A stretch of DNA of 44,585 bases from Nemertoderma westbladi (Eukaryota > Animalia > Xenacoelomorpha), in assembly GCA_032718475.1 (NCBI GenBank), contig JAUCBJ010001959.1, forward strand, positions 1 to 44,585, given 5' to 3'. The position numbers and the translations under genes were made by a program. Numbering within the stretch: the first letter of the stretch is position 1; every line of letters begins with the position of its first letter. Positions 10,289 through 36,670 of this stretch are shown here, in pieces. The notes beneath the pieces are model-generated. The model saw only the letters and a list, made by a program, of their open reading frames with translations, was not told the DNA's origin and did not search any database.

Positions 10289-11563
10289 TTGTGGGGCGAG
10301 CCACGACGTTGGCGGAGCCTTAGCGAATTGACACTGTTAGGGGGTGGGTCAATTTATGCAAATAGTTGTCGTCGTCGTCGTCGTCGTCGTTGTCGTCGTC
10401 GTCGTTGTCGTCGTCGTCGTTGTCGTCGTCGTTACGATTTTGACATGCTAATAACTTTGTCGGATTTAAAGCTGCCAAGTTGAAAATTTGTAGGTATCAA
10501 TATGAGCAAAAGTTGAGATTTTTTAGAGACTTTCAGACACCATCAGTGCAATGGTCTCCCGCTAGAGGGCCACATGTCTAAACATTAAATGGCCACCCAT
10601 TTCTTTGCTTTTAATCCGTTTAAGCTGAAACTTGGGAAGTATGTACTAGACCATTAGCTGTAAATTTCAAAGGAGGCTAATCTGTCTGCAGTTCTCCAGT
10701 CTGCCGCTAGAGGGCGAAATGTCCCGAATGTGAAATTATTCTTCCATTTAGTTGTTTATGATCTGATTACGCTGAAACTTGTCATATATGTACTAGATGA
10801 CATCCTGAGTCTTTGTGTGGATTGTAATCGGTCCGAAGTTTTCCAGTCTCCCGCTAGAGGGCCACATGTCTAAACATTAAATGGCCACCCATTTCTTTGC
10901 TTTTAATCCGTTTAAGCTGAAACTTGGGAAGTATGTACTAGACCATTAGCTGTAAATTTCAAAGGAGGCTAATCTGTCTGCAGTTCTCCAGTCTGCCGCT
11001 AGAGGGCGAAATGTCCCGAATGTGAAATTATTCTTCCATTTAGTTGTTTATGATCTGATTACGCTGAAACTTGTCATATATGTACTAGAAGACATCCTAA
11101 GTCTTTGTGTGGACAGTAATCGGTCCGGAGTTTTCGAGTCTGCCGCTAGAGGGCGAAATGTAGGAAAGTGATAACCTTTGCGAATTCCTTGATCTTAATC
11201 TATTTAAGCTGAATTTTGGAATATACAGTACCGGTATGTACTAGACCACATGCCTCGTCTTTGTGAGGAAGGTGATCGATCCGTAGTTCTTTAATATGCC
11301 GCTAGAGGGCTAAATGTATGAAAGTGAAAACCTTCCAACATTTCGTTATTTATGATCCGTCAATCGGAAACTTGGTAGATATGTAATAGACCATAGGATG
11401 TGGCTTTGTAGGGAAACTAATCCTTCCTTCTTCAGTTACCCAGTCTCCCGCTAGAGGGTTAACGTTTTCCGGGAAAATCTTCTCCTATGTTTTTATAATC
11501 CTTTCGAGTTGATACTTAGCATTAACTCATTTCACGTGCTGCGCGAAGGCCCCACTTCGTGTA
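10289..11563 (+). mobile_element. 1275 bp HINE/DINE-1-like repeat, copy A: (GTC)n tract + 7 units of ~146-156 bp
   Basis: Same termini as the 1973-2590 element; (GTC/GTT)n at ~10365-10433; GCTAGAGGG anchors at 10561, 10706, 10853, 10998, 11145, 11301, 11450. Confidence 0.8.
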
Positions 11564-11787
11564 TTATATATTATGTAGATGGTTTACCAGTAACTCATTT
11601 ATATTATTGATCTTACATTTTTGCTTCTGTGCTTCTAAACACTTTATAGGCCTATCCTTATATAAATCATTAATATACTATACGCGCCCATCCATTAATA
11701 CTTGGGACCAAACTCGCTAAGCTAGATGAACATAATAAATTCATCCGCTTCGAATGTTTCCGGCGATTTTTAACCCCGTTCCGCAAC

Positions 11788-13095
11788 GTGGATAGCCAAT
11801 TTAAAGACCGCGCTTTGACCAAGCTCAGCCTAAGAAACTCAGCTGCAGAGAAGTTGGATAGCGCTGGATTCGTCATTTTCCAAGAGATTTGTATATCGAA
11901 CTTGCACTCCTCTGTTATACAAAGACCTCGAATCCCCACAGGTTATTCTGTCGTGGAAATTCAGACAATAGGTCCACCTGAAGAGACAGACACGCCCACC
12001 TCAGCTATGCACTTAGAAGACGAACCAATATGTCTAGAATCTGAGGAGATTCAGCCTATCGCGCCCCGGAACAGCGACAACGATTACATCATAGAATGGT
12101 ATCAAGGTCCACAGTGTCTCACTGCGTACGATTATCGACATGCCAACTATGTTTCTAGGCAACGTTGTCGGTTATGCGCATCGAGAGACCATGATACGCC
12201 CATGGACACAAACGTCCGCTGTTCCTATTTCCAAGAACAACCGACTATGGAAATTTATTGCGCATATTGCAGACTCAATAACTTGCACATTTTTGCGGTT
12301 TGCCCTCAATTTATGACTCAATGTCACCATTGTCAACTAAAGGGACACGCCAGTTTCGATTGCCCTTTTAATCGCGATTTGGAAAGCGTAGATGAAATGA
12401 TCACACTACGTTACATCAGAGCTTGGGAAGCGAACGCTGATTTACATTGTGATTCGCGCCATCATTATTATCCTGGACGCGCTTACGAAGGAGTTTATGC
12501 GTTCCATCCTTATCTATTCGCTTCTGTCGAACAGAAATCACGCATATCGAGTTACGAGCTACTGAAGCGCGTCGGAGAATGTATTTCAACCAAATTTGTA
12601 CGCAAATTTCTCAGGAGTGTTAATCCTAGCGACCTTCATTCCTATAACTTAATCAATTATATCCGTCAGGATCCGGACTATGGAGACTTATTTGTTAACT
12701 CACACCCCGAGTTACAGGAAGTATATCGACGGCCTTACGAATACCGAGCCCGCGAACGCGAGTTGGAAAGAACCATTAAACCCCGGAGGTTTCTAACTGC
12801 CTATGGTCCACCCACGGCTCTCGTTCAGACCACTCGTAAAGGACCCGTAAGAGCGGCTGTCTTAAAACGAGCTCTCAAAGCCGTTAGACCCCTCTCCCCC
12901 GACGTTGATGTCAATCAACCCGGTACTTCGACTGGCGGATACACCGACCATAATCCTACACCCTCTGATGCAATCATATTGCACCCTTCACCCAGGAGTT
13001 ATAGCCCTCCTTGTAAAGTGGCTCGCCCCAAAGAGAAAAAGACTCTGGCTAGCTTTAAAAAACTGCGTAAACGCCGTCCGCGCAAGAAAGACTAA
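11788..13095 (+). CDS. Cargo ORF: triple CCHC-type zinc knuckle + WExxADxH domain, basic NLS-like C-terminus
   Basis: Uninterrupted frame (open from 11674; first ATG 12007); CRLC..H, CAYC...H...C, CHHCQLKGHASFDC, RAWEANADLH; ends KKLRKRRPRKKD. Confidence 0.75.
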   Translation: MDSQFKDRALTKLSLRNSAAEKLDSAGFVIFQEICISNLHSSVIQRPRIPTGYSVVEIQTIGPPEETDTPTSAMHLEDEPICLESEEIQPIAPRNSDNDYIIEWYQGPQCLTAYDYRHANYVSRQRCRLCASRDHDTPMDTNVRCSYFQEQPTMEIYCAYCRLNNLHIFAVCPQFMTQCHHCQLKGHASFDCPFNRDLESVDEMITLRYIRAWEANADLHCDSRHHYYPGRAYEGVYAFHPYLFASVEQKSRISSYELLKRVGECISTKFVRKFLRSVNPSDLHSYNLINYIRQDPDYGDLFVNSHPELQEVYRRPYEYRARERELERTIKPRRFLTAYGPPTALVQTTRKGPVRAAVLKRALKAVRPLSPDVDVNQPGTSTGGYTDHNPTPSDAIILHPSPRSYSPPCKVARPKEKKTLASFKKLRKRRPRKKD

Positions 13096-13660
13096 CTGTT
13101 TAGAGTATTTACATATATTAGAAACTGTGATTTTTGTATATTTATAAACTTGAATCCCATTTTCTGGGAGCGGTGTAAAAGCTTTTGCGGATATACTCAG
13201 TCCCCCTCGCCCGCAAGGTACCGTTATAGGTGTTTTAACGGACATAAAAGTCATTCTTCGATATGTGTGCTTTGGTGGACATGGTAAGGCAAAAAACCCG
13301 CAATGCGTAAAATACCCTGGCACAGCTTAGCCTTGATGATTCAGATTACGACATCTAACAGCTGGTTGCTGGCATGGAAACGGCCATTGGACACATGGTT
13401 CTTTGTTTAGCTTAACAGCCAATCAGAGCGATTTTTTCTGTCGATGTGGAGATATTTGGCAGATCATGCTAGGAGTGTTCAGTCTTACTGTTTTTCTTGA
13501 TACTGTTGTGTTTTTTCTATCTAGGCCAGGAACACCGGCTCTAGAGTCAATTCATTTCAGACTTTAGAAGAAACATTAGTAGGCTTAAGATTATAGAGCG
13601 TTTAACTGTTATCATAACATATCATTCATAACAATCTTAACAACTCAATCGGCACATATA

Positions 13661-14935
13661 TTGTGGGGCGAGCCACGAAGTTGGCGGAGCCTTAGCGAAT
13701 TGACACTGTTAGGGGGTGGGTCAATTTATGCAAATAGTTGTCGTCGTCGTCGTCGTCGTCGTTGTCGTCGTCGTCGTTGTCGTCGTCGTCGTTGTCGTCG
13801 TCGTTACGATTTTGACATGCTAATAACTTTGTCGGATTTAAAGCTGCCAAGTTGAAAATTTGTAGGTATCAATATGAGCAAAAGTTGAGATTTTTGAGAG
13901 ACTTTCAGACACCATCAGTGCAATGGTCTCCCGCTAGAGGGCCACATGTCTAAACATTAAATGGCCACCCATTTCTTTGCTTTTAATCCGTTTAAGCTGA
14001 AACTTGGGAAGTATGTACTAGACCATTAGCTGTAAATTTCAAAGGAGGCTAATCTGTCTGCAGTTCTCCAGTCTGCCGCTAGAGGGCGAAATGTCCCGAA
14101 TGTGAAATTATTCTTCCATTTAGTTGTTTATGATCTGATTACGCTGAAACTTGTCATATATGTACTAGATGACATCCTGAGTCTTTGTGTGGATTGTAAT
14201 CGGTCCGAAGTTTTCCAGTCTCCCGCTAGAGGGCCACATGTCTAAACATTAAATGGCCACCCATTTCTTTGCTTTTAATCCGTTTAAGCTGAAACTTGGG
14301 AAGTATGTACTAGACCATTAGCTGTAAATTTCAAAGGAGGCTAATCTGTCTGCAGTTCTCCAGTCTGCCGCTAGAGGGCGAAATGTCCCGAATGTGAAAT
14401 TATTCTTCCATTTAGTTGTTTATGATCTGATTACGCTGAAACTTGTCATATATGTACTAGAAGACATCCTAAGTCTTTGTGTGGACAGTAATCGGTCCGG
14501 AGTTTTCGAGTCTGCCGCTAGAGGGCGAAATGTAGGAAAGTGATAACCTTTGCGAATTCCTTGATCTTAATCTATTTAAGCTGAATTTTGGAATATACAG
14601 TACCGGTATGTACTAGACCACATGCCTCGTCTTTGTGAGGAAGGTGATCGATCCGTAGTTCTTTAATATGCCGCTAGAGGGCTAAATGTATGAAAGTGAA
14701 AACCTTCCAACATTTCGTTATTTATGATCCGTCAATCGGAAACTTGGTAGATATGTAATAGACCATAGGATGTGGCTTTGTAGGGAAACTAATCCTTCCT
14801 TCTTCAGTTACCCAGTCTCCCGCTAGAGGGTTAACGTTTTCCGGGAAAATCTTCTCCTATGTTTTTATAATCCTTTCGAGTTGATACTTAGCATTAACTC
14901 ATTTCACGTGCTGCGCGAAGGCCCCACTTCGTGTA
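13661..14935 (+). mobile_element. 1275 bp HINE/DINE-1-like repeat, copy B (direct repeat of copy A, offset 3372)
   Basis: Only 2 substitutions spotted versus copy A by eye; identical microsatellite length. Confidence 0.8.
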
Positions 14936-15173
14936 AGATATTCATACTAATTATCTGTTTAGATGATCTTGGGCAACCGGCTACTATTACCCTTAATATA
15001 AAAAATCCTATCTGCTAAAAATGTTTTTATATTAAGGGTGAGTGAGGGTGTATAAACGGTACTTACATAAATATGCATACGTTGTGGCATGCAGGCAGAT
15101 GAAATTATTTATATAAAGCACTCCATGTTACTAGCGATTAATTAATAAGATTTATTTAATTTGTATTATAAAG

Positions 15174-15381
15174 GAATCCGCTCTGCAAATCATTTAATTA
15201 TCGCAATAAAGTACTGATGAATCCTCCCTTCTCATGCCAGTTGAATGGAGCGTATAAAGAAGATGTCCCAGACCACGAGTTCATATCAACTGATATATTT
15301 GATTACATGGCTGTTAGTGATGATGGAGGGACATCAGCTTTATCAGATACCAACCTCGCAAATCGAACCACAACACCCACT
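15174..15381 (+). CDS. Host gene exon 2: second half of PAN domain + Thr-rich linker
   Basis: AAG|G acceptor; NPLCKSFNY...CQLN...FDYM completes PAN in the correct phase; donor GTAAGT. Confidence 0.8.
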
Positions 15382-15514
15382 GTAAGTGATACCGGTACAA
15401 TAACAACATGGGATTTAAATACAAAATAAACACTGGAAGAAAATCCAAAAACGAAACTAATCTATTAACATATAATTCAAAATTTATTAAAGTAAAATTA
15501 TTTTATAATTTCAG

Positions 15515-15590
15515 TGCAACTGTACCGGAAGAGAAACCAAACAAGTTGAAGGATACATTGAGAGTGGATGCCAAATGGGCCCCAAAAAAC
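15515..15590 (+). CDS. Host gene exon 3 (short Cys-containing exon)
   Basis: TTTCAG acceptor, CNCTGRETKQVEGYIESGCQMGPKK, GTAATG donor; supplies the needed phase 0 to 1 change. Confidence 0.55.
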
Positions 15591-15807
15591 GTAATGTATT
15601 TTTCATTTTATACAACCACTGAAAGAACTGCTGTATCTTATGGAGTCAAAACGAAAATTTATGTTAGATTTCATTCTTCGGGAGATTTTGGATTACTGGA
15701 TGGACTAGAAAATGGAAGATCATCTATTATTATTATACTTATTTATTAATTATTAATTCAACTTTATGTTGTTTATTTATCTAACAAAATTAAACAAATT
15801 ATTTCAG

Positions 15808-15966
15808 ATATTGGAGAATGGAGTGAATGGACCACGATCAGCAGTGCATGTCCACCAGCAATACCATATAGGCAATGGAGAAGCTGTGAAAAAATGAGAT
15901 GGGATGGGGGATGCGATGGTATTGAAGATTTTCCACGTTGTCCGCTTAATGCGAATATTATATATG
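15808..15966 (+). CDS. Host gene exon 4: thrombospondin type-1-like repeat
   Basis: TTTCAG / GTGAGT, 159 nt phase 1-1; GEWSEW..C....RQWRSC.....CDG....C. Confidence 0.7.
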
Positions 15967-16620
15967 GTGAGTCTGATGCATTCAAATAATGCATTAAATA
16001 TTGGATCAATTTGAATAATGTATTGGATGAGAGTGCATTAAATTTATAGCAAGTTAATTTGAAGCAAAGTCCATTATCTCAGGACGTTTTAGCAAAATTG
16101 TAAATAATTTAATATTAATTACATGTAACATTGATAATCTCAAGTTAGTTAATCGCTTGGAGTTACTTAATTATCATAATAATGAATTTGAAGTGCCAGT
16201 TATTCTAATGAGAAACTGAATAATTCTCATAATAATTACTAACTAAAGTCCATGTTTTACATTATGCAGTCAGCATATTATCGCAGGGAGCTGATTTTGG
16301 GCTCATTCTGTTCGGAATATAACGATTTTATTCAAATCCACTTCCAATTTTATAATCTTATTATTTGTTCTCATTCAAAAACGCTGTTAAAAAAATACAC
16401 ATTTTTCAAAATTATGCTCCAACATTCGAGATTTTTCAGTCTAATATAGCAATAATAGCTAGTTTAAAAAAATATATAGGTTTATATCTTATTATTTAGC
16501 GACATTGAAATAATTACGTCTCAAATGCATCCAAATCGTTGTTTGTCTGTAATAATTATCGGAATCGTGTAATGTTAAATAAACGATGCTATTATTTTGA
16601 GGAACTTGGACAACCACTAA

Positions 16621-18975
16621 ATACTACTACGATCGGCATGCTGCATTGCAGCTGCATTATATATATATTACATATATATTTATAATGCTGTGCTGGCTTG
16701 TCGATAAAATTGCGCCACAACTCCCTATCACCCATGACATTTGCTAGATTATCCGCATATTCAAGGCCAGTGTCCCTTAAAAGATGCGTCTCAAGAAAGT
16801 CATGGGCTGGCTGTCCACCATGCTTATTCACTCCATGAGGCTGCCAAAGTACAAGATAATGCATTGAGTGGTCGTCACGGTGAAACCAATGTCCTGCAAA
16901 GCGGAGGCGGTTCCGTTCAAGAGTCGAGATAGGGAAGACTATTGGAACACCTCCAGTGTTGTATAGAGTCTGATTGGAGATGTGTTCATTGTACTTGACA
17001 CAATGAACCCAGCGAAAATCCACGGTACTTTCTTTTGAAAGTGCCAGGATTTGTTATCCTCTGCAGTTAGAGCCCAGCATGGAGTCCCATATAAGAAAGA
17101 GTACTGGTACTACTACAGCCATAAATAATCGAACCTTATGGTTCAGTTTTATTATATGAGACTTCCAAATCCTGGACAGAATATTTAACGCTGCCCATGC
17201 CTTCCCTTTATGTATACAACTGACTTTCGGATCCCAATCTATTTATATAATCTAAATAATCTATCAATCTAAATTTATTTAGATCCCATGTAGCAGAAGT
17301 CATCCACATGCTCGAGCAAGCCGTCCCTAGAACTTATGCCCTTACGATCAGACATTTCTTCAGGGATGTTTAGATTCACTGTCATGGTTTTGGTCTTCTT
17401 GGAGTTAACAAAAAGACCAACACTAGAACAACCTGCTCCAATTAGCAGACGGGAGCCTTTGGGCTCACTCTAGTGATTCTGACAGTACCCCTATGTCATC
17501 AGCAAAGTCTAGATCATTAAGGTACTTTGCTGAAATTCCTCTACTTCGTGTGCCAGTAGTGGGTGTTACCATCACCCTATCTTTATTAAGACGGTCCAAG
17601 GACGAAGGACATGAATAATGAGTATAACATAATCTCAAAATAATAGGATTCATATTCTGCGTGTTAGAGTGGACATTTCGGCAGTTCCGAATTCTGTGGT
17701 CAGTGCAGGGGGCCTTAATCCTGATTCGATGGTATACAGGAACTGTTTCCGCAGCTGCTAACTTAACTGCTTCTGTGAAAGCAGTATAGCCCTCGCAGTG
17801 ATCTGTTGCCTCAAGAGGCGAGAACCTCATACCTGTTGCTCAGCTGTAGTGTGAAGCTGGATCTCACACTTGGCTGTTGCAACAGAGAGGACCAGTCATG
17901 CCGCGGCAAGGCAGATTTCATAGTTTTGTTAGCATGCAGACTAAGTCTTACCTTGGCCACAATAAGGCGGTGATCACTGGAGAAAGGTCGTAGTGTAAAT
18001 GCACTACAGTCTTGTACAGAGCTGCATTTCCTACGAAACAGAATGTGGTCTATCTGGGACTTGTGGCCACTGGGTCCAGTGTAAGTCCTTAGCTTTCCAG
18101 TATGCTTCTTGAACTGAGTTCCAAATGAAATGAGATGAAATCCTGAAGATGGATGGAATTTCGGTTAACACTATTGCTGTAGTCCCAGGGCACTTGCATT
18201 GAAGCTCGCCTTGTTGCATTGGGGACCCAAGTGTTAGTGCATTAACTCGCTAGTCTAGTGACTTGCCTCAATTTACCGAAGGCTTGGCTATTCGGGGTGA
18301 AATGTGAGAGTAGCCTCCAACTCCAGAATCCCTCTCCACCTCGCAATCTGGCCTCCCTAGTGACCCAGGTTTTGGGCCAGTAAGGTCATCAGGAAAGGGA
18401 TCAGGTAAGACAGGCAGCCAGTCAGGAGATAACTGACGACTGTGAGGCCTATTGTGTCTGGTAGTTCTAGTGGCCAGACCTCCGCATTACTAATGTAATC
18501 CATAGTGGTGGATGGGGGTGCTTTTTTGCCAAGTTGGCTCTCCGGGCAAATACCACACCCTGTTTGCCATTCCACAGGGTGGGTGTCGCAGTGAAATCAG
18601 ATATGAGGCCCATCACACATACCTACTCTGAATCACATGTTCCACCATTGACTGTGCAGCTCAACTGCTGGGCCACGCCCTGTACCCCAGATGCATTTCG
18701 CATTGGAGTGCAACAAATTGGAGACGAGTACGCTCTACTGCGCTCTATTGGTGGATAACAATCTGACTGGTTAGGCCATATACCCCTGCAGCCAAGTATA
18801 TGGGTCCTTAACCCAGGACCAAGGGTGTTCCTATCCCAGAATGAAGGGAGTCCTAGTTACACGACCAGATAATGCCCTTATTCAGAGGGTCTATGCAGCC
18901 ACAGGTGGCCCCTGCTTTATGCTGCATGGAGGTGGCAAGTTTCCTGAATCAATGACCCAGAATACCTGACCTGAC
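16621..18975 (-). mobile_element. Degenerate RTE-type non-LTR retrotransposon with internal deletions
   Basis: APE fragment PFSSDHRLIV (~17955-17990), RT YLNDLDFADDI, DDFCYMG, RLRFAGH; (TAG)n tail at ~16621; same family as 42280-42914; 5' limit approximate. Confidence 0.8.
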
Positions 18976-19267
18976 CACTATTAAATATATACTAAACCAA
19001 TTAAGCTGAATTTTATCCAGTCATTTATATTCGTAGAATCATAACCTCCAATTTTCGTTTTTCAAGGACCACCCTAGTATATATATATATATGTTGGTCC
19101 TTTTAAAACTTTTCCTTTATTATGTTATTACATTTACTGCATATATAAGTTAGTTATTAACTATATTGGTTATTATTTTTGTGCAAAATTAAGTGTTTGT
19201 TTTATCTTTCCTGTACTGCTGTGATATTAGTATGTATCCTAATAGTAATAATAATATAATATTGCAG

Positions 19268-19390
19268 ATGATGACGAATGTCTTTCTAATACACACAATT
19301 GTGACATAAATGCATACTGCAACAATACCATCGGTTCCTTTAATTGTAATTGCAAATCAGGTTTCGAGGGAGATGGCATTATCTGTACAG
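19268..19390 (+). CDS. Host gene exon 5: calcium-binding EGF domain
   Basis: [41 protein letters not shown]; CAG / GTAATA; 123 nt phase 1-1. Confidence 0.92.
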
Positions 19391-19654
19391 GTAATAATTA
19401 TTGGACTGGTAGAATTACGTGAAGGTTTAAATACCGGTACAAAATAACAAAAAACCAAGGCTGCAAGGTACACCAGCATTACCTTGTACCGTGTACAAGT
19501 AGGCCTAAAGAAATTCATGGCAAATAAGTTGAAAATACAGGAAATCTACATATACAAGTCTTTATACTGATCTTTTTACTATGGTGTGTTGAATTTTGCT
19601 TTTGCTACAGTAGCTAAAACTAATTACTGATAAACAAGAGGTCTATCTACATTA

Positions 19655-20030
19655 AAACATCTCTAAACTTTGCTGACGAACTATGATTACTCTCAGAATC
19701 ACTAGAGAGAGCCCAGCAGCTCATCAGATCATTAGATCAGGGTACTTCTAGTTTTGTCTATTTCTTCAATCTATTTTGACAGTTAAATCAGACAGTCATA
19801 CTAAGTGGTCAGACTTAATTGACAGTCATCAGAAAATTTCTGAACATATTAGCATAAGATATATTGATGGTGTACTTGAGCACGTGAGCAAGGTGGACAG
19901 CGCATGACTTTCTTGAGAAGCCCCTTAAAGGAAATATACATACCTCGCAGAGGTGGATATTCTTGTGAAGCATATGGGGGATAGGGAGTTCTGGAGTTGT
20001 AATTTTGGTGAAACGCTGGCATAGCATTCT
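19655..20030 (+). mobile_element. Old RTE-type LINE fragment
   Basis: LNFADEL.LLSESLERAQQL and GGQRMTFLR match the other two RTE copies. Confidence 0.6.
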
Positions 20031-20394
20031 TAATGCACGCTACGTTGTTACATCAAGGCAATTGTAGATTGCATGATGGTGATACAAATTTTTTGATAAG
20101 CCATCATAGCATCTCAATGTGCAGCTGCAATACAACAGGCAGATTATAGATAGATAAATAGATGATACACAGTACCAAAAAACAGAATACTACGATAATA
20201 CTCAAACCTTCAAATATAGTTCAGAATAATATTTTTCACAAATTTGAAAGAAAATTTTTGGAAGAAAAGTTTATCACATTTCATCCATATTTCACACATA
20301 CTTGAAATAAATGTACAAACCTATTCAAAATGATATTCTTTGAATACATGAATAGCATTATGACAACTTACCGTTGGCAAATTATATCTCTTAG

Positions 20395-20511
20395 ATATTG
20401 ATGAATGCCTAAGGGACACCCACAGCTGTGAGGCGAACTCGATTTGTAACAATACAATAGGCTCCTATGACTGCATTTGCCCCTACGGATATATTTGGAA
20501 TGATGAATATT
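20395..20511 (+). CDS. Host gene exon 6: calcium-binding EGF domain
   Basis: DIDECLRDTHSCEANSICNNTIGSYDCICPYGY; TAG / GTAAGT; 6th Cys formed across the junction (T|GT). Confidence 0.92.
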
Positions 20512-21268
20512 GTAAGTTTTAAATTCAAAAATATAAAATTTAATAATTTATATAATATTTAATATCATTAAAATCAACGAATTATTAACATATGATAAAA
20601 ACAAATTCATTATACCACATTTTATTCACATTAAATAATTAATTTATCTACTTTAAGTACTCTGATTCACAATGGAATTCATTGAAATCTCAAAAAAGTG
20701 GTGTCAATTCACTGGTACAGTCACATACAGTTGCAACACTCTGTCTAGAAGACATTTCTTCACTACTTCACTAATAATACATCATGTTCAATACATCGAA
20801 TTGAGAATGGGTATAGTCATACTTTGCGATTAAAGCAAGGCAATAAAATATACTAGAAATGTACTGAAAGATAATAAAGGGGCTGCAATGCTTTATTAAT
20901 ATCATAATGTTGAAATTTTCACAAACCCAATAACATTATTAATGAATGAGACTAATTAAATTTTAACATCCCAATGTTGTAAAAAGCCATGTAAATGAAC
21001 AATTCGTATTTTTTTTGAGGGATATCAATATCTGACAATATTATATTATCTCTAAACACCAGTGGAAGTAGAACAGAATCATATAAAAGCTAATTAGTGA
21101 TAAGATGGCAGTGACCAGAAAGTTGAATCTATAGCGCCTGCAGAGTGGTGCTGGGTACTGGAAACTATATAAGTATCTTCCGAGGATATATATACAATGG
21201 CTCATTTGGTTATTTGTTGCACCAAAAATCAAAACTATAGTCCTTATTCTCTATTACAATATTTACAG

Positions 21269-21934
21269 GTTCCTGTGCTACTCAAGCCTACTGGCCTTTG
21301 AGTATCCAGTATGGAGCTACTGATAAACTTGGGGATCTAAATGGAACCATTTATAAGAGAATATCATTTGGTGTCGGACCAGCAGGAGTTAATGACCAGG
21401 CCATGTATTTCCGTGAAGGTTATGTTTCTATTCAACATGGTATTGAACTGCTCTCAGAAACATTTACACTAACAGCATTCATAAAGCCGATATTTGATGG
21501 AACAGGTGCTATTATTGAATTTGGAGATCCTGGTACAAGAGGTTCACATTTTCTTTTACACCCGAGTATATCCACTCTTTGGTACAACAGCATGAATGGG
21601 GCATCACAAACAGTGTTTAACCTGGATAATGCTGTAGAAATAAATGTGTGGCAAATGGTGGCCCTCATTGTCACAGCTGCGGAGAAGAAGGTGGTGATAT
21701 ATAGTCGAAAAGTAGGAAACGCAGATCATCTAAGATTGGAGTTAGGAACACCTTCAACAGGACGACGTTCTGGAGATTCCAACACGCTAACAATAGGAAG
21801 AGAACCAAATGTGAATAATGCATTTAAAGGATACATAGCCCATGTCCGGTATTACAGCTGTTATGTATCAGCATTCCAATTGGAAGACATTTACGGAGAG
21901 AGTTTAGGACTAGAAACTCAGTTTGACAGTTCAG
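21269..21934 (+). CDS. Host gene exon 7: LamG/concanavalin A-like domain 1
   Basis: YWPL..D..G..NG, FTLTAFIKP, NVWQMVA, LTIG....FKGYIAHVRYY; TTTACAG acceptor, G|GTTAGT donor (read-through stop at 21939). Confidence 0.88.
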
Positions 21935-22228
21935 GTTAGTTAAATTTAAATCATTTTTTAAATTGAGTAGGATTTAATAAATGGGGAATGTGTTCCAGAT
22001 CTTCACAGATTTATAACTCTGTATAGATGATATATTTTGTAATAAAGCCCCTATCATGAATAAAGCAAAGATAAGGAAAGGCAATGTTATAACTATATTG
22101 ATATGGACATAATTATTAGAAGTTTTGTCGGGTACAGCTTTACAAAGCGACTCGGCAATGACTTCCAGTCAGTTGCAGTGAGAGGTTTAAGACTTTAAGT
22201 ACTGTAGGGTTGAGCACAGTGGCAGCAT

Positions 22229-23375
22229 ATGATGGTATTGACAGATGGGTGGCCATGAGGAGGTAAATTGCGGACATACAAAATTTAAATATGAAAAAAG
22301 ATATGTAAAATTTCTTCAAATTTCAAAATTGTTAATGCAAAAATTAATAATTACATTAGATTTTGAGGAGTCATCAGACCGTACAAAGAGAAGAAATGTT
22401 CAATAAATTACTGATCATTATGAAACTTCTGCGCTAGTAGCAGCAACAGCTTCTTCCTTTCAATCAGCAGGTAAAGTGAAGAGCGGGCAGCAGATTCGCT
22501 TAATAAGTGATCATAAGTTTACATCTTATACACCAAACCAATCTATTGCTTTGATATTAAATGCCAAATTGACCAAAGCAGCGTATAATGTACTTCGCCT
22601 TCAAGCTATTAATAAATCTGCCAATTTAAATCCAGCTTACAACCGCGTTCGTGAAGCTAAACAGTTGTGCTACCCAACTGGAATTGAAGTCAGCAATTTT
22701 TCGGCATCCATCCCTCTTCAACATCTATTAGACCATACCGTTTCTCGAATCTGTGAAACCAGCAATGATGTTATTGAGTCCTTAAATTCTAATTCCAAAA
22801 CCGGCAATATTTGTAGATTTGGGCTTTGAACTAAAGCTGGATTTGATGGTAGCTCTGGCCAATCAAGATACAAACAGCTTCCCAGAATTGATGGTGATAC
22901 AGATGGTTCGAACATATTTATATCCTGCTTGGTTCCACTCGAATTGAGGGCATTCTCAGAATCATCTGAAAAACTTATAATTTGGCGAAATCAACATCCA
23001 TCATCAACATTATATTGCCGACCAATTCGATTCGAGTTCACTAAGGAGACTAAACAAAGGATTCTTGCTGAAGACATAAGACTCACGAGTGAGAAAAATG
23101 CCTTGATGCCATCTGAGGTTGTAATTGGTACTGAAAAATTACATGTCGAACATATATATTCGATCTCACAATGATTGATGGGAAGGTTCATACAGCACTC
23201 AGTGACATGACAGAAAGTTCACAGAGTTGTGACTTGTGTGGGGCCATACCTTCCCAGATGAACAATATTAAAACCTTGCTAGCCCGTCCAGTCTCCAAGG
23301 AAACTAAAATGTACCATCATGGACTATCCATTTTACATCAATGGATTCGATTTTTTGAGTGCCTGTTGCACATTG
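22229..23375 (+). pseudogene. Transib (RAG1-core-related) DDE transposase, 5' part
   Basis: FEESSDRTKRR, GFDGSSGQSRYKQ (D1), PSSTLYCRPIRF, MIDGK (D2), CDLC, GLSILHQWIRFFECLLHI; stops and frameshifts; probable intron 22263-22359; start approximate. Confidence 0.88.
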
Positions 23376-25535
23376 TGATAAACAACCGCGACCTCTATAC
23401 TAACAGCAGAACTGTTGAACAGACAAATACCCGTTAATATCCTTCTGTCAACCTAATGAGCTCTCGCCTAACCAATAAGACACAAAAAATGCTCTACTGT
23501 TAAGTAAAGGGGATCAGGAGCGTGCTATTACTAAATTGTAAGGGTTGCTAAATACAAAACTGCTACTTACCGTTGGATGGCGCTAATCTGCCGTCCGCTA
23601 ATATATTTTACTAAATTGACACAACTCCTGCAAAATCGCTTGTTCCTTTCTCTACCGATTGCTCGATAGAGAGCTAACTGTTCGAATCTATGAGCCACGC
23701 GGGAATAACCAAAACAATAAACCCGAGTCGGCTCCCTAAGCTTACTTAAGACGAGTGCGAGAGGCTTTGCACTCAGAGTATTCTTACGCCTAAATTTATC
23801 ACTATTAAAGCACGCTATTGTCTACGTCTTTTCTAATCGCGAATACTGGGGGTTCTCTAACGTAATGTGTGAATGCGAGAATATTTAAAATAATCAAATG
23901 ATACAGTATTTGTTTCTACGTAAATAGTACCGCTCTGGGTCTAAACTTGCCTGCCGCTGGCTTTAGGCCAGCAAAATTACTAGCGTATTGTGTGTGCCGA
24001 ATAGTGCGATCTAGCTGATTGCCCGCTAATGCAAATAACCGCTCAGCGTGAATAGTTTACAGTACTCTAATTATTACCTTAGCTACTCTCCGCTATGCTG
24101 CGTACTAAGTCTTAATTTTACTAATCAATTACAGTCACAAATATGTAACAGCGTACTAATTACTAAGAGTTCCAGAATGCGTAATTCTAATTTATTACGC
24201 AACAGGTTTCGCTAGTAATAGCCTAAATTGCCGTATTACTTTGACCTAATCAGTAACTAATTGTTGTAACTAAGAAATAGAAATCAATCAAAGAGAAAAG
24301 AGCGCCTACCTAAACATTCACAATCATAGGCACACTTCAGTAACACACCAATCAGCGTCAACAATCACAGTTCGCAATTATGCAGTTAACTACTGTATAA
24401 CCCACAATTATGCGACTCACTATTCTTACTCCACACTCAACGTTGTAATACGCGCAGGCCTCTCCCGGATACATCTAGGATTCCTAACTAACCCAATTCC
24501 TGCCCCCCTAATACTAAATAGAGACGAAACCTGGATCATCAGCCCCCTAGTTACTGTATCGGCGAATGGTCTGCGTGTTACAGTGCAAATGCCCGCCCGC
24601 AACGTTGACCCCCCGCCAGCGTTGCCCGTCTTTGAATCCTCCGCTCTCCCTTAGTCGCTCAACCCCCGATGTGCCCACCGCCTACTGGCACCTTAGCCCT
24701 CCATTATGCTAATAGCTACCGTAGCGGCGCATGCAAAATCACAAAGTCTGACAGTCTCAGAAATCCCTTAGGATTATTGCGTAGAAAGGAATCACATAGA
24801 ACCATTAATCAAAAGGTAGAAATCATAGTTCCGATTGTAATTAGCAGCAATCGATAGGATTAATTGAGAAACACAATCAAGAATAATCGCACTAGCAAAT
24901 CATTTCGAGAAATTAATCGAAAATAGCAAATTGCAGAAATACGCTAAAATATCCGTCAAAAAATGAATAGGGACAGCTCAGCAAGTACAGGGGTGATAGC
25001 ATGAGCTCTACCGGCACACCGCCAATTTATAGGTGATCCGAGTGGGTGATGCAATAGGGTGACTCAATCGCTCTCCCATTGGCTCTCCAGTCCGCGCTAG
25101 CATTAGACCAACCTGGAAGCAGTTAGTCCAATAAGGAGGCCGGATTGTAGCCCTATTGCCCTCAAATTATTACCATATATGGTAATGGATCATGTTCCTG
25201 GCTGCTGAATAGCCAAGACAGCGTCCCTATGCTAGCCCTATTGAAGCTAATATCAGCAAGCACGAAATCCAGGGTCCGACTAAACTTGCTACCCTGGAAC
25301 TATCTACATATATCCTAATACAAAATTACGTAGGTAGGGCTACATATTATACAAAATGGATGGGTTCAAATATATGGGCATTTCGATTTCCCTATCTAAA
25401 TATCATTGCGTTATTATGCCTTATCTAAAATATTATGCTGCACAACGGACTAATATTACGTACAGTATAACGGACTAATATTGCATACTGCATAACGGAC
25501 TAAAATATGTGGATACAGCGCCATATACCGTAACA
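23376..25535 (-). repeat. 3' LTR (23376-24697 shared with the other LTR; probably extends to 25535)
   Basis: Minus strand TGTTACGG...TTTATCA preceded by purine-rich GGAGCGG; CArG CCATATATGG (~25173), CCAAT (~25078), TATAAA (~25026-25031), AATAAA (24191-24196). The 25535 boundary is inferred. Confidence 0.75.
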
Positions 25536-26179
25536 CCGCTCCAAGGGAAATCATACAATGTTTCCCTCCAATTGTAGAAGAGTATAAGGTGATGTATACA
25601 AAACAAAATAAATTTCTTCCAACTAATCTAAATACTTGATACTATAAATCCTACTATTTACAAAATATTGCGATAGATATTGCATAATGAATTGCATACA
25701 AATTAAATTTACAAATATTATCTCTCTCATACAAATTAAATTTACAAAATATTGTTTCTCGTTCGTTCTACATAATGATTACTACATACAAAATCAAATA
25801 TATAAAATTTTGCTAGGGCAAGTGAAAGGAGTAAGCCAAACCCGCAGGTTTGTCTCCCCAATCACTTCCTTTGCCTCTCTCATAATATAAATTCAAACAG
25901 CTCAACTAGTGTATATGAGTCTAGTCGAAGATTTCTAAAATGCTACAATATACATCAGAGCGACGATGATGTATATATCTAGAGTCTGTCGCCCTGTGCT
26001 ATAATGTATTATCGACCCGCTCCTGGGTTCTTTGGGCTCGCTCCTCTCTTTCGCCCTCTTCCCAGATACACCAGTCTACCTCCAGTCGACTCCGTTGACG
26101 GCGTCCGTGAGGCGTCACTCCCCGGAACCGGCGACGATGTTCCCTGAGCCCCGACAGATTCCCGGCTTGTGCTTTTTCC

Positions 26180-29100
26180 TCAGCCTCGTCCCAATTGTCG
26201 TGCTCCTGTGGTCGCTTCCGCCAACTCTTCCTTATGCAGTTGCACACGCGCTTTCTCCGATGCTCCCTGCGCCTTGCGCTGCAACCTTTGCGCTTCTATA
26301 ATAGAATGATAGTGGTCGTCCTTGACTTGACGCTTGTCTTGGACCCCTCCTCCTGGTTCCTTCCGCGAGCCTTGAGCTCCAGCGGTTGTTGCTGTGGTCG
26401 CTGCGATCCTTTGCTCCTGTATCCTCTCAGCGGTCAATGAACCCACTGGCACATGAGTCAACAAGAATTCGTTGCGGTATTGAATAGCCGCCATCCTCCA
26501 ATCACCTCGCGCGCGTACCACTTTTCTAGTCTCCGTAAATACACCCTTCGTGATGCGATCGCAAATAGCAATGAAGTTCCAGGTATACTTATTGTCCATA
26601 TTCAACTGTCTGAAGTATTCTCGGACTACGATAACTCCAGTGTTCTGTGGAAGGTCTTGAGCAGTTAGGATGAGTTCCTGATATTGTGGTAGCGATTGTA
26701 GATATGGCTCGTACGCAACATGTGATGGGTCTACCGCCCAAAATCCATATCCCGCCTTGAATGGTAACCAACGCATCTGCGCTTGAATATGGTAGTCGGC
26801 CACACTCTCCCACTTATCTAACATCTCCCGAAGTAGGTTAGCGCTATGGTTTTGAAAGAATCATCTCGCAGCTGACATCTCGCGCTACGATGTCCCTTTA
26901 CCCCACAATATCCACATTGAGAAATGAAGACGGTGCACGTGTGAAACGAATGGTCGGTCTCATTACACCAACGACAGACCTTATGCGCCGCCTCTACTAC
27001 CGCGTCGCACGACTTTAGATTGTGCCTTGTGCTGCCGCACAATTTGCACCTACGCGCTTGTGGAAACCAGGCCCTCTCGTATATGAGGTCTCCAATCGGT
27101 TTCGCACTTCCTTCCTTCCCAATGTCTAATACGATGTCGTCTTCTCCGGTCAACGGTTGTCGATCCGGAACAAAGTAAACATCCTCGCCCTTGTCCTCTA
27201 TCTCCAATATTTCCTCCCGCGTTCGTTTCGGATATGTCTTCTCCACCGGAAGATCTACTCCGAACACCTCTACTAACGTCTCCGGCCAGCCCTCCTTAAC
27301 AGGTCTATCAGCCTCCGAGTGGAAGGGAGTACCAAACCCGCGGGTTTGATTCCCGAACCACTTCTCCAAAGCTTCTGGCGTCGGATACTCCATCGACGGT
27401 CGGTCTCCCAAATCTCCGATGTTCTGTCGATATACTCCTTCGAATATCGCTAATCCTCTCCTTACCATCGACGTATTCTCTAACGATTGGTTGAAGAACG
27501 GGGTTAAGAAACGCTTCATCACGTCGGATTGGATTCCCCCTTTCGAGCGAATGTATTGATCTCCTCCGAATACCAATGGATGACGCTTCAAAACTCGCGC
27601 AACGATATCCGCTAATAAACAAGTCACCGTGTTCGACTCAAGCACCAAATAATATTGTAGCGATGCACGGGGTGGCACGCAAATGTTCCAATACACTAAC
27701 GCTTGCCGCTTGAAGTGGGATTTGAACTCCGCTCCCGGTGGCGTGTTGTATTCGCCATACGCCTCCTCGTACTTCTTCTTCGTCTTTAACTTAAAGTCCC
27801 AATTATACAACAAGTGTGCTATAAAGCCCATACCAGTCTTAGCAGAGTTGGGATACTCCCTATAAATTCCAATATCCTGTGCCCATAGCAACAATAGCTT
27901 GGTGTCGACAAACGGTCTCGGCAATCTATCTTCCAGATCAGTCATGGCGTTGAAGTCGCTCTCCAAATCGCTCTGGACTCCCGATCCCACCTTGACGTAA
28001 TCTTGGTTGAGAATAGCCTCTCTAACTTTCTTGGGTAGCATCCTGGCGTCGATACGCTCCGCTCCGTGCATACCTCCTCGCCTGCATACCTCCAAAATCT
28101 GCTCCCTAGGATCCTTCCCCTTCCGATATTGTGTCGTTATGATGGGCTCTGGTCTCTCTCGATCCGCCCTCACACGCATAAACACATGAGTCACACCATC
28201 GGCTGCACGAATTTGAATACACTTGCTAGTCAAACATTCTTGATGGGACCCTCCTTCATTGTCGTAGAACATCACCCTCCAATCCTGCAGTGATTCCTCC
28301 GTTTTCCTCCACTGACGCTGAATCTCGTCTGATGGGGTCCACATGCGCTCGATAGCCTTGTGGTCATCATATCGGGTATAAGAACCCTTCCTCCTCAGCC
28401 ACGTCTGGTCTACCTCCTCGTCGTCTGGGAATGTAGCCACCGCGACCCATACCTTGATGTACTTATCCAACCATCCAAATAGTTTACTCTCCTTCCCCGG
28501 AGCTCCAATCTTATCCAATGTGTCGTAATCTGTGATCTGCATTGGGACATCACGCAAGAACTTCGCGCATAAAACTTCCCGTAGACAGTCAACGTTCCAA
28601 TGATCCGCCATTCTTACCATCGGCAAGAATCGTATCGCTTCTCGCGACTCCGGATGATCTACTAATATCGCAGGTTCGGGGCCGTCGGAATAATACACCG
28701 GTCGGGGTTGAGATACGACCTGTGGAACAAATCCGGTCACTCTCCTCGTCTCCTCTTGATGTCTATCCGCGGTCTTATTATACTCCACTATCCTGTTCTC
28801 AAATAACTCTTTCGCCTTCGCCGCTCGCTCCTCCTGCCGCAACGCGTCTATGTCGTCCTGATGCTCAGGCGTGAGGCTTCTCGCTCGGTGAGGTGAAGTA
28901 AACGCAGTCCAGGGACTCGAGAGCTCCAAACCCGCGGGTTTGGTACCCGAGTCCCGCGCCGCTTCGCGCCGCGCCTCTAGATCCTTATAGGCTCGGTACA
29001 GCGAAATGGCCACTGCCGTCTCTATCAAACTGGGTGTCGAACAGGGTTTAATCTCCGTATACGGATCTAATGTCGTAACGGTCGGCGTAATGGGTCTCGG

Positions 29101-29715
29101 AGGTCGCTTTCCGCTGAAGTCGATACTGATCATCGGGTTGCTCATCGGGTAACCTCCCTCGTTGTATCTAAGGAACTGGTGAGCTGGACATCGCGTTAAT
29201 ATCGGTTCCGGATGTTGTTCGTCTAATCAGTCGGGAATCGCCACGTCTTGCTTATTCATGCATTCACCACACTTGTAGAACAGCTTGTACACGCTGAAGA
29301 CTTTCGACGTCTCCTGATCCTCGCCTCGAGTCCTCCGGTACAGATGCATTCCGTCGAACTGATCTCGGATTGCAGGTAGAGGTTCTTTGTGTCGTAAATA
29401 CATATTCATATGGTACAGTCGTGCGATCTCCTCGTCCGGATCTGCGCTGATGTCACATACGTCCAAAGCAAAGTCGTAGGGATACCGCGTGCGATACTCT
29501 CTCCGCAAAACTTCCATCCGGTCCCCCAACGCTCTCATTCTTTCCCTCCGTAATTCCTTATCATAAGTCGGTTTATATTTTCCGTTTAGCTCCATCACGG
29601 ACCGCCCATGGTAGTAAACGTTCGAATCTTTACATCCCGGTCGCGCGAATGGTAGCTCCGCCTCCTCTCTGGCAGTAAATCCTCTGCGCGGTTGCGCTCT
29701 AATATCCCTCTCCAT
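26180..29715 (-). pseudogene. Accessory ORF of the BEL element: C3H Zn motif, DEDDy 3'-5' exonuclease, triple Zn knuckle, WExxADxH domain
   Basis: 162 aa and 775 aa ORFs are in frame across one TGA (29227); 214 aa ORF overlaps by frameshift at ~26820; ExoI FYDNEG, CIQI, LP..V...IL...YVKVGSGVQSD, FVDT, GMGFIA, W..., YYLVLE. Confidence 0.8.
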
Positions 29716-30476
29716 TATGCCTCGCGTATATACATATATATATATCCCAATAAGTGCCGTTACGTAACCAATTACACTGTGGGTAAATCAGTTAGATGTC
29801 GCCGAAAGACAGACCTCCCGAACCCCCCCCGCCTTCCAGCAGTTCAGGTTCGACTCTCTAGATCCCGTCTCTTCCTAACTAACTATCCTCTAACCTATTC
29901 CCATGCATAGCGCAAAAACTTTGGAGATAAACTGGCCGTGACCAACTCACTTTTTGATGCCCAAACTACTCCCATTACTCGTAATAAACTACAGTAGTTA
30001 GAAAGGACCATAGCCACAATACTCGACTATACCAAACCCACAGGTTTGATAATCGAATATCACACATCCTGCAAACTACTGAGTGGGGTCCATGTACGCC
30101 TCTGGTGCTACTAACCTTTAGCACCTTAGTTGCACTGTTGGCACCAATCTGTGGAAGTTGCTAAACTCAATTTACACTCCTACGTAATATAGCCGTCACC
30201 ATGGTTTCTAAATGCTATTTTCCAGGCTTCACGACTTTCAAATTACTGTTTCTATAGACGAATTCTAAAACGCGTCTATACACAGCGTCTGGAATTGTCT
30301 TGGGTTCACTTCTAATTTTTAAAATTTAAATTTTTCCAAAAAATTTTTTTTTTTAAATAAAATTTTGTTTTGATACCCACTAGACAAAACTCAACGCAAA
30401 TCACCACAACCCCGCTCCTATGCATTTCCTTGTATTTGCATACGAGGAATGCATACGAAGTGAGTTGCGTCCAACA

Positions 30477-32008: not shown

Positions 32009-33093
32009 GCAGTTCTTTTACAAATTGTCAGCCAAAAGGCAGACGAATTTAGTAATTTGTCATAAACACTGCATGACTCTAATGCCAGCGACGGTTGTCC
32101 GCTAACTAATGGAAGTTTCGAATCCAAACCCGCAGGTTTGGAAACCAAAGGCTCCGTTGTGTCGGTCATTTTCTGTCCGTCACTTACTAACTGTGACTCT
32201 GGTTTAGTCTGTAAGGGTGGTTTGATGTCATAACTTACCCTTCCGGAACTAGTAGTCACGTAAGTCTGTTGGTCTGGCAGGTCTCCGGGCCGCTCCAATG
32301 ACTCTTCAGGCCGCTCCAATGACTCTTCAGGCCGCTCCAATGACTCTTCAGGCCGCTCCAATGACTTAAGTTTGGCCTTAGACTTTGACTTAGAGACTTT
32401 CTCCACCTTGACTTCTGCATCTTCAGGCATCGGATTGGTCACTATCTTTAGTCGCTCTGGCCAATGTTCCTGTGTCCTCGTTAGAAAATCAGGTCCATGC
32501 AACCAAAACTCCTGCGACTCTTCCTGACAGAATTCCACCGGCATTGCACCTCTCGAAGTTATGTCGGCCGGGTTCAACACTCCCGGACAATGTCTCCATT
32601 GTTCCTTCGTCGAAAAGTCAACGATCTGAGCGCGTCTATTGGCCACAAATGTCTTTAGTGCAATATTGTCGGCCGCAATGTATACTAACACCAAGGATGC
32701 GTCCGTCCAATAGAATAAGGTCAATGTCGTGTCTAACTCCTCTGTTATCTGCTTACTTACCTCGACTGAAACTACAGCCGCCTGTAACTCTGCACGAGGG
32801 ACAGTCATGTATTTGACCGGCATTGTCTTTGATCTAGAAGTCACAAAGGCCGTCTCGAACTTGTCCTGACTTGCCTCTCGGCGAAGGTAGGCTACCATAC
32901 CAAAGCCGGTGTCACTTGCGTCACTAAATAGGTGGAGCTCTAAATCAGCTGGGAATACCAGCTGATTCGGAAAGTAGGAACGGGGTACATCTATATTTTT
33001 CAATAGATGCAACTCGGCTTCCCACTCCCTCCACTGCATATTGGTTCGTCCCACTCTACGTCGGACAACCAAATTTTCCTCATGCACGCTCAT
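31915..33093 (-). pseudogene. pol: BEL/Pao RNase H region and linker
   Basis: LHLFSDAS..GFG.VAYLR, TVPRAELQAA, YWTDA, FVANR, WRHCPGVLNPADITSRG, WLHGPDFL. Confidence 0.92.
32289..32365. repeat. 21 bp coding tandem repeat (SLERPEE x ~3.7)
   Basis: GGCCGCTCCAATGACTCTTCA repeats within the RH-IN linker. Confidence 0.9.
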
Positions 33094-36642: not shown

Positions 36643-36670
36643 CCCCTTCTCGGCGATTTAATTCGCCTTC

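Follow-up and report, generated by a model that had tools for sequence, protein, structure and literature searches.

In a 44,585-nucleotide stretch of a contig from Nemertoderma westbladi (JAUCBJ010001959.1; hereafter, the window), we identified two copies of a protein module that appears to be the C-terminal half of a retrotransposon ORF3 protein. One copy is in a gene of a BEL/Pao element, located behind pol and ahead of the 3' LTR; we will call this gene the BEL cargo. The other, ORF A, would be a truncated copy from a second high-copy family, likely of LTR elements, and the HINE-like repeats that surround ORF A would be later neighbors. We put the probability of this reading at roughly two in three. 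From their sequences, the BEL cargo and its three database homologs are predicted to combine a DEDDy-like 3'-5' exonuclease with three CCHC knuckles and an aromatic block.

Table 1. Features of the window, by position (., no strand given).
Feature	Positions	Strand	Remarks
5' end of related LTR-like repeat	13..86	-	upstream flank unrelated
Left HINE-like non-coding repeat	10289..11563	+	(GTC)n microsatellite, ~146/292-bp central tandem repeats, 3' hairpin
Spacer (low-copy) from left HINE to ORF family	11564..11675	.	single-copy depth at 11645-11666
ORF A, 5'-truncated copy of high-copy accessory gene	11676..13095	+	tail of post-nuclease region, acidic linker, three CCHC knuckles, aromatic block, basic C-terminus
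ORF A zinc knuckles (three, CCHC-type)	12166..12366	+	found by homolog-only profile, among other evidence (see text)
ORF A post-knuckle block (WExxADxH ... aromatic pair)	12424..12654	+	predicted helical, low confidence
GGAGCGG, putative polypurine tract	13167..13173	+	directly before TGT; 10-mer twice in window, here and at 25542 (-)
Putative 3' LTR start (begins TG)	13174..13660	+	cut by right HINE; LTR identity inferred
Right HINE-like repeat copy	13661..14935	+	
BEL 3' LTR	23376..25535	-	23376-24697 matches 5' LTR; extension inferred from GGAGCGG/TGT and CCAAT/TATA-like boxes
BEL cargo after frameshift (WESVADYH block)	26180..26860	-	
BEL cargo main open frame	26818..29226	-	DEDDy-like exonuclease ~28269-27637; three knuckles 27048-26875
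BEL cargo N-terminal part	29227..29714	-	ATG 29714; ends at in-frame stop 29229-29227
Candidate branch point and splice acceptor	29777..29795	-	63 nt before cargo ATG
Inverted-repeat arm	30126..30152	.	complementary to 38769-38795
BEL/Pao pol (Peptidase_A17, Integrase_H2C2, DUF5641)	30644..34841	-	several frames, broken
BEL gag (DUF1759, zinc knuckle)	34522..36657	-	
Candidate splice donor (38796), then second inverted-repeat arm	38769..38796	-	
BEL 5' LTR, 5'-truncated	39371..40693	-	1315/1322 aligned bases identical to 3' LTR

The BEL/Pao element (23376-40693) has paired LTRs that enclose gag, pol, and the cargo. Its reading frames match Peptidase_A17 (E = 1.1e-22), DUF5641 (E = 1.2e-11), DUF1759 (E = 4.3e-10), and Integrase_H2C2 (E = 2.7e-5), and its target duplication is incomplete. 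The cargo protein, of about 1,100-1,200 residues, is a fusion of the predicted nuclease with three CCHC knuckles and another block. The element's gag is separate, and the knuckles of the cargo lie outside it. We give even odds that the cargo is produced from an env-style spliced RNA (see the candidate splice sites in Table 1).

Among 1.84 billion representative proteins, we found three homologs of the module (P0001, P0002, and P0003; E = 1.2e-6 to 3.8e-4). All three share the nuclease-like region, the linker, the three knuckles, and the aromatic block. (P0001 and P0002 are naturally open.) Profiles built from these homologs alone were compared to 1,015 frames from the window; they recovered the nuclease region of the BEL cargo (E = 2.2e-17) and the knuckle modules of both the cargo (E = 9.1e-10) and ORF A (E = 7.7e-7). 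The corresponding post-knuckle profile reached the BEL block at only E = 0.84 and missed ORF A, and with Cys and His masked it gave nothing significant. Of the putative catalytic residues in the cargo, D420 (ExoII) and Y526/E530 (ExoIII, Y-x3-D/E) are in register with P0001-P0003, and the last acid of the motif is E, as in P0002. The ExoI motif (D-x-E) is present in P0001, in P0002, and in an upstream frame of the contig that encodes P0003 (L001). In the cargo, we assigned it by eye to D322/E324; MAFFT placed it differently, probably because of a 45-residue insertion.

Other searches hint at the same kind of nuclease. P0002 has a weak match to PF01612 (E = 0.2). In the ESM Atlas, where P0002 was the only query, the top match was a cluster with DNA_pol_A_exo1 and zf-CCHC (0.86, which is below 0.9), and all 10 of the best 10 named matches were in the DNA_pol_A_exo1 family or clan. 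Foldseek with the model of P0002 (pLDDT 36.9) ranked EXD2 first (E = 1.2e-3), followed by RNase D, Egalitarian, and Nibbler, none of them reaching E = 0.001. The best match of the profile to a sequence in PDB was 7C42 (E = 2.5e-4, in the knuckle region only). (With the BEL frame itself as the query, the best PDB match was a rotavirus-type VP4 chain at E = 0.013, which we took to be chance.) For ORF A, the AlphaFold model of the module was poor (pLDDT 47.4), and a structure search turned up nothing beyond generic helical matches (best Z 5.0).

None of the five proteins matched a curated family above threshold, nor anything in PHROGs or NCBIfam under E = 0.2. As the first-pass annotation proposed, both of the window's proteins contain a real transposon-borne region without a Pfam match. 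Word-indexed homolog searches confirmed 0 of 1,080 candidates for ORF A, 0 of 5,968 for the BEL frame, and 1 of 7,988 for alignment A1, which was P0002 itself. Related-loci searches with ORF A confirmed 0 of 1 viral and 0 of 28 metagenome stretches. With P0003, 1 of 132 was confirmed, which was its own contig (2,486 nt), and we saw no element hallmarks there.

ORF A is homologous to the BEL cargo and to the three database proteins. The shared motifs that were first noticed are present both in ORF A (CRLC at 12166, CAYC at 12259, CHHC at 12322, and WEANADLH at 12424) and in the cargo (CKLC at 27048, CRWC at 26976, CGYC at 26916, and WESVADYH at 26812). A tblastn comparison within the window gave two colinear pieces that span the BEL frameshift: 82 columns at 30% and 85 columns at 25%, with a joint E of 1.6e-10. 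The Smith-Waterman score of ORF A against the BEL protein, with an X at the frameshift break, was 157, as compared to 39.1 +/- 4.9 for shuffled sequences (z = 24; 0 of 500 reached it). The significance persists if Cys and His are masked (score 69, z = 6.4, 0/500), as well as for the post-knuckle part alone with masking (score 59, z = 7.9, 0/500). Upstream of 11788, the first 38 codons of ORF A align with residues 545-579 of the cargo, a block adjacent to its predicted nuclease (z = 5.6, 0/500). As a control, ORF A against the knuckles of BEL Gag reached only z = 2.3 (17/500), and the cargo against gag reached z = -0.8. DNA-level similarity was not detected between ORF A and the cargo (z = 1.2; 10 of 100 shuffles reached it). 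Thus, the claims that the similarity is at the protein level only, and that it extends past the knuckles and across the BEL frameshift, are borne out.

ORF A had been described as a 435 aa ORF. The open frame is real, but it is not a complete gene: the supposed start at 11788 is a GTG. Because the frame is open upstream to 11674, matches the cargo over its first 38 codons, and has its first ATG at 12007, we consider ORF A to be a fragment. It is truncated at 11676, just behind the part that corresponds to the nuclease domain in the BEL cargo, and this explains why it lacks the nuclease. The idea of natural forms with and without the nuclease is therefore not upheld. Full-length copies of the A family very probably retain the nuclease.

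To describe the A family, we used contigs from four public sequencing runs (X1, X3, X4, and X5; our guess is that X4 is RNA). The contig tables list 20 of 106 loose ends and 27 of 948 pieces, and record presence, not absence. In all four runs, contigs of the ORF family continue upstream into one shared other sequence, and the listed loose ends before 11676 agree fully. The depth of the family is at least 56,000 in X3 and X1; its subfamilies are 13-15% diverged, and single contigs are about 100-160 times deeper than the flanks. Of the 15 listed variant places, 12 are third codon positions (p = 2.9e-4), including all 5 upstream of 11788.

At its 3' end, ORF A is followed by GGAGCGG/TGT (13167-13176), with a repeat boundary at 13174. 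In another copy in the window (86 to 13, 79%) and in contigs 29 and 30 of run X5, similarity begins exactly at 13174, and all four runs have loose ends at 13184-13188. In other words, other subfamilies have the motif and the first bases after it in common before they diverge. The motif that follows ORF A is the one that follows the BEL cargo, and in both cases it precedes a TGT; since a repeat boundary also lies there, the A family may be a second LTR family, and we think that it is probably an LTR element. (The start of the BEL LTR at 25535 was chosen partly by the shared motif, so the match of GGAGCGG/TGT is not fully independent.) A single LTR-like end is present, and this putative LTR was seen once; at the DNA level, it does not resemble the BEL LTR (z = -0.9).

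Alternatively, the A family could be an element of a non-LTR type (Penelope-like, tyrosine-recombinase, or a DNA transposon), with the gene shared between element classes. There are precedents: in bdelloid rotifers, DEDDy ORFs are shared between the LTR elements Juno and Vesta and the Athena/Terminon elements (PMC5408684), and Dada DNA transposons contain DEDDy domains (PMC3706591). Also, no gag or pol was linked to the A family in the contigs, which break inside the repeat, and DNA alignments of the A-family and BEL 3' regions were not significant. But an ORF, a purine tract, and a boundary that starts with TG form the layout of the 3' end of an LTR element, and 10 of these bases are identical to BEL, so we consider a non-LTR type to be unlikely.

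The first-pass annotation viewed ORF A as the cargo of a HINE-like element and proposed an exchange between LTR and HINE elements. The two flanking repeats do resemble HINE/DINE-1 elements, which are non-autonomous Helentrons: they are non-coding, with a microsatellite near the 5' end, a 3' hairpin, T-rich flanks, and central repeats, which are 140-180 bp in HINE/DINE-1 (PMC4067079, PMC7492417). We saw no clear 11-15 bp subterminal inverted repeats in them, just a 7-bp inverted match by eye. The likeness covers only the flanking repeats; both copies are complete, and ORF A lies between them and inside neither. In run X3, the HINE contig over 11188-11561 has a depth of 5,286, as compared to 45-47 for the flank contigs; across X3 and X1, the HINE depth is at least 5,286. 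At 11645-11666, the depth falls to 23.5-43 (X3 and X1) or to 0 (X5 and X4). Two single-copy contigs (X1-5 and X3-10) depart from the window at 11674 for 335 unlike bases, and none of the listed contigs from the four runs bridges the junction at 11674/11676. Because this junction is low-copy while the HINE and the ORF family are both high-copy, we do not believe that ORF A is carried by the HINE. (If the HINE sat inside an LTR of a non-autonomous element and had been copied to both of its LTRs, 11564-11675 should be high-copy; as this stretch is low-copy, we rejected that idea.)

A HINE or Helentron might still have captured the 3' part of an LTR ORF3 and, through rolling-circle read-through, mobilized it within a HINE-ORF-HINE composite. 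Helitrons do capture gene fragments (PMC6431247), head-to-tail HINE joints exist (X1, 14927 to 13662), and the two copies that bracket the fragment in the same orientation differ at just 2 of 1,275 bases. However, such near-identity is expected of a young family, given its roughly hundred-fold excess in depth, and the unbridged junction and the upstream continuation of A-family copies also argue against capture, which we rate as slightly less probable than a non-LTR type. Even if a single transduction took place in the window's lineage, a broken gene would have been captured passively, and it would not be an accessory gene of the HINE.

An expanded host gene family (EXD/Mut-7/RNase D-like), acquired once by the BEL element, is very improbable: the closest folds are cellular enzymes, but both of the window's copies are intron-free and in mobile-element settings, the A subfamilies are diverged and deep (see above), and no named host protein was matched in the homolog searches. 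The module is neither a single-copy host gene nor, given the separate gag and the controls against Gag, a Gag nucleocapsid.

The module had also been likened to the TRAMP adaptors Air1/Air2-ZCCHC7, which have tandem CCHC knuckles. The matches to Air2 (E = 7.3e-4 and 0.086) are confined to profile positions 411-476, and HIV NC and Lin28 score similarly, so this likeness is that of a generic CCHC array. Air proteins have five knuckles, no nuclease, and Trf4 as a partner.

Among mobile elements, Cer19 is of the BEL/Pao type, and some Cer elements of Caenorhabditis elegans are said to have a 3'-5' exonuclease ORF. Cer19-ORF2 (C38D9.2, F15D4.5) is, as here, a second gene inside the LTRs with zf-CCHC signatures, and it is likened by description; no exonuclease is reported for it (0 occurrences of the word; PMC7084138). 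DEDDy ORF3s are already known from LTR elements of bdelloid rotifers: Juno and Vesta have an extra ORF behind pol, in the place of env, with RNase D-like motifs in which one acidic residue is swapped from D to E, as in the BEL cargo (PMC5408684). This comparison is by architecture. Here, the carrier is BEL/Pao, and the predicted nuclease is joined to three CCHC knuckles and an additional block; in that paper, "CCHC" and "zinc" have 0 occurrences. In literature searches that covered the main text of openly available papers, we found no report of an exonuclease-knuckle ORF in a BEL/Pao element.

Judging by domain order, the architecture as a whole is closest to RNase D from Trypanosoma brucei (TbRND, PDB 7C42), which has a DEDD 3'-5' exonuclease followed by an array of CCHC knuckles (PMC7797062). 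These knuckles bind the RNA substrate, and the combination is described as very unusual (PMC7797062). TbRND is a single cellular enzyme that trims the U-tails of guide RNAs, with four knuckles and a short linker (PMC7797062), whereas the proteins described here have three knuckles, a long acidic linker, and an extra C-terminal block, in a mobile-element setting.

By analogy to TbRND, the knuckles would hold single-stranded RNA a few bases short of its 3' end and would pass that end to a two-metal nuclease site. The predicted nuclease might then work in trans against small silencing RNAs of the host, or against the precursors of these RNAs, and so ease the silencing of the element. We tentatively favor action in trans, at well under even odds, because the accessory gene stands apart from gag-pol. 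That the nuclease trims RNA or cDNA of its own element is a little less likely, and binding without cutting is less likely again. A role against host RNA silencing is possible. A broader proposal is improbable but worth stating: several invertebrate LTR lineages might carry a knuckle-guided ribonuclease that is built like trypanosome RNase D and is expressed from a spliced RNA, with long-range pairing across gag-pol that brings the splice donor and acceptor close to each other. This ribonuclease would trim host piRNAs or siRNAs, and seven YGYG-loop hairpins along the element's RNA would be a self mark for the knuckles.

To our knowledge, LTR elements with an enzyme-type third gene have been described in few animals, and a function has been proven for none of these genes. 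The more striking claim, transfer to a rolling-circle element, fails. Nevertheless, a nuclease-plus-knuckle gene is under codon constraint in two families that lack DNA similarity, one of which is high-copy, and this argues that the gene benefits the element. The likeness to trypanosome RNase D provides a concrete biochemical prediction, which the open homologs P0001 and P0002 make testable. If small silencing RNAs do prove to be what the nuclease attacks, this would be a rare counter-defence by an animal transposon.

The protein similarity between ORF A, a 5'-truncated copy of a high-copy accessory gene, and the BEL cargo, an extra gene of a BEL/Pao element, is genuine. The two align in two colinear pieces (tblastn), and none of 500 shuffles reached their full score of 157 (z = 24). 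As the first-pass annotation had claimed, this similarity is confined to the protein level: there is none between the two at the DNA level. The same annotation offered masking of Cys and His as a way to refute the relationship. The relationship survived, because none of 500 shuffles reached the masked score for the whole alignment (69, z = 6.4) or for the post-knuckle part (59, z = 7.9), while ORF A against Gag of the same BEL element, as a control, gave only z = 2.3. The similarity does run colinearly beyond the knuckles, as described, but a third block had been overlooked: residues 2-38 of ORF A, which precede the GTG at 11788, match cargo residues 545-579 (z = 5.6).

Coordinates of the main features, on the forward strand of the window
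Feature	Position	Strand	Remarks
ORF A	11674-13095	+	open frame between two 1275-nt HINE-like repeats
BEL/Pao element	40693 to 23376	-	Pao-type gag and pol domains
BEL cargo gene	ATG 29714 to 26180	-	between pol and 3' LTR
Transposase-like frames	22407-23375 and 40694-41367	+	split by the BEL insertion

ORF A had been interpreted as cargo of a HINE-like element, and so as one side of an exchange with an LTR element. The two HINE-like repeats that flank it differ at 2 positions, and HINE and ORF alike occur in high copy number: as rough ratios, single contigs reach depths of 5286 and 7329 in sequencing run X3, versus 45-47 in the flanks, and 1817 in run X5, versus 19. Contigs were compared for four of the seven listed runs, using the best 20 of 106 loose ends and the best 27 of 948 pieces. 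Among the contigs listed, the ORF family is split into subfamilies that are 13-15% diverged. Within the spacer, at 11645-11666, X3 and X1 show a depth of just 23-43, and X5 and X4 a depth of 0. X1 and X3 each have one spacer contig, which departs from the window sequence at 11674 and continues with 335 bases of other DNA; none of the contigs listed from the four runs bridges the spacer and the ORF. ORF-family contigs start at 11676 in all four runs, with fully concordant loose ends among the rows listed. Thus, the HINE-ORF arrangement is not an amplified unit, the window copy of ORF A is cut at 11676, and the proposed exchange between element classes is unsupported.

Among the best-supported variants listed, 12 of 15 in the ORF are at third codon positions, and these include 5 of 5 upstream of 11788. 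This pattern agrees with ORF A being coding upstream of 11788 and with the copy being cut at 11676. Since the cut corresponds to about residue 545 of the cargo, just behind ExoIII, the absence of the nuclease is most simply explained by loss of the 5' part, rather than by a natural form without a nuclease, as had been suggested.

What carries the ORF A family is probably an LTR element; we put the probability of LTR origin at roughly 70%. The ORF A stop is followed by GGAGCGG|TGT, a 10-mer with a single other occurrence in the window, which lies behind the BEL cargo. Similarity to two X5 contigs and to the copy at 86->13, which is 79% identical, begins exactly at 13174; other subfamilies follow the sequence as far as 13184-13188 before parting from it in all four runs (among rows listed). 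Such a 3' layout would fit a purine tract followed by an LTR start. Two points count against an LTR origin: the putative LTR body of the ORF A family and that of the BEL element are unrelated in sequence, and neither a second LTR nor a gag-pol linked to the family was found in the window or in the contigs listed from the four runs.

The LTR parts of the BEL/Pao element are identical at 1315 of 1322 bases; its 5' LTR is truncated, and part of the target duplication is lost. It is inserted in a transposase-like frame that has no Pfam match and that we take, from its motifs, to be Transib/RAG-like. The cargo frame is disrupted by an in-frame stop (29229-29227) and a frameshift near 26860-26830; both window copies of the module gene are broken. 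Upstream of gag, a 563-codon open frame at 36671-38362 (-) encodes a long charged coiled-coil-like repeat; it has no significant Pfam match and is probably either an N-terminal portion of gag or an ORF in its own right.

The window DNA is repeat-rich and eukaryotic; its content suggests that it is probably from an invertebrate. A shorter HINE-like element (1973-2590) shares the terminal motifs of the HINE-like copies and has a GTCT/GTCC microsatellite and 54-nt subterminal inverted repeats. A Laminin_G_3 domain frame (E = 2.1e-10) at 21241-21939 has a second copy 22.7 kb away (44031-44585, 85% identity), and RTE-like fragments (DUF6451) at 16592-18164, 19662-20149, and 42325-42918 are likewise duplicated. 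A Gypsy-type gag remnant with an in-frame stop (5407-6240; DUF7041, E = 1.8e-17) adjoins a foldback repeat (4658-5372).

With the 802-residue BEL frame as query, a full phmmer scan returned three proteins at E up to 0.001: P0001 and P0002, which have naturally open frames and lie on contigs of 7.1 and 9.4 kb, and P0003. In each of them, an N-terminal region resembling a nuclease is followed by a low-complexity linker, three CCHC knuckles, and a block that closes with an aromatic cluster. Among 1015 window frames, profiles made only from these homologs pick out the BEL nuclease region (E = 2.2e-17) as well as the knuckle modules of both ORF A and the BEL cargo; the post-knuckle profile is weak for the BEL block (E = 0.84) and did not find ORF A. 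Because the ExoI-like motif of P0003 sits in an upstream frame that overlaps the main one on its 2486-nt contig (frames 257-571 and 546-2405), this copy is frameshifted too.

Four weak lines, each below threshold alone, concur in suggesting a DEDDy-like nuclease: PF01612 for P0002 (E = 0.2); the top Atlas match for P0002, DNA_pol_A_exo1 plus zf-CCHC (0.86); the Foldseek order for a poor model of P0002 (EXD2, T. brucei RNase D, Egalitarian, Nibbler); and the BEL cargo motifs D322-x-E324 (ExoI, assigned by eye), D420, and Y526-x3-E530. In the PDB, the profile matches the knuckle array of RNase D best by sequence, and Air2, HIV NC, and Lin28 score nearly as well. A nuclease-plus-knuckle layout has been described for one cellular enzyme, RNase D, whose knuckles bind its RNA at bases 5-9, counted from the 3' end (PMC7797062). 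DEDDy ORF3s are reported from the rotifer elements Juno and Vesta and as common to Terminons (PMC5408684), and a second ORF with CCHC from Cer19 (PMC7084138). Our literature searches, which covered the main text of open-access papers, returned no report of an exonuclease-knuckle fusion in a BEL/Pao element.

With two mismatches allowed, the 18-nt palindrome CCAAACCCRCRGGTTTGG is present at seven sites (25836, 27332, 28926, 30032, 32124, 36313, and 37933; 0.05 expected), all within the BEL element, in coding DNA in three phases and in non-coding DNA. On the sense strand, every site folds to a hairpin with a YGYG loop; Rous sarcoma virus NC is reported to bind a UGCG tetraloop via its zinc finger (PMC5035970). 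These hairpins may serve as dispersed signals for packaging or localisation, or the palindrome may be a dimeric DNA-binding site.

A candidate branch point and acceptor (29777-29795) precede the ATG of the BEL cargo by 63 nt, and the BEL leader holds a donor-like site at 38796, one of nine within the element. For the 28 bases behind this donor, the best pairing partner is 30160-30120 (-37.5 kcal/mol, versus a mean of -22.3 and a best of -28.5 for 30 random 28-mers). A 27-nt inverted repeat (38769-38796 / 30126-30152) begins at the donor-like site and encloses gag-pol; both arms hold TGGTGCCA, which we take to be primer-binding-site-like. Long-range pairing of the arms would loop out gag-pol, and the inverted repeat is a candidate for bringing about env-style splicing of the cargo gene. 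The cargo protein is predicted to act as a knuckle-guided 3'-5' ribonuclease, and as targets of this putative enzyme we slightly favor host small RNAs over the element's own nucleic acids.
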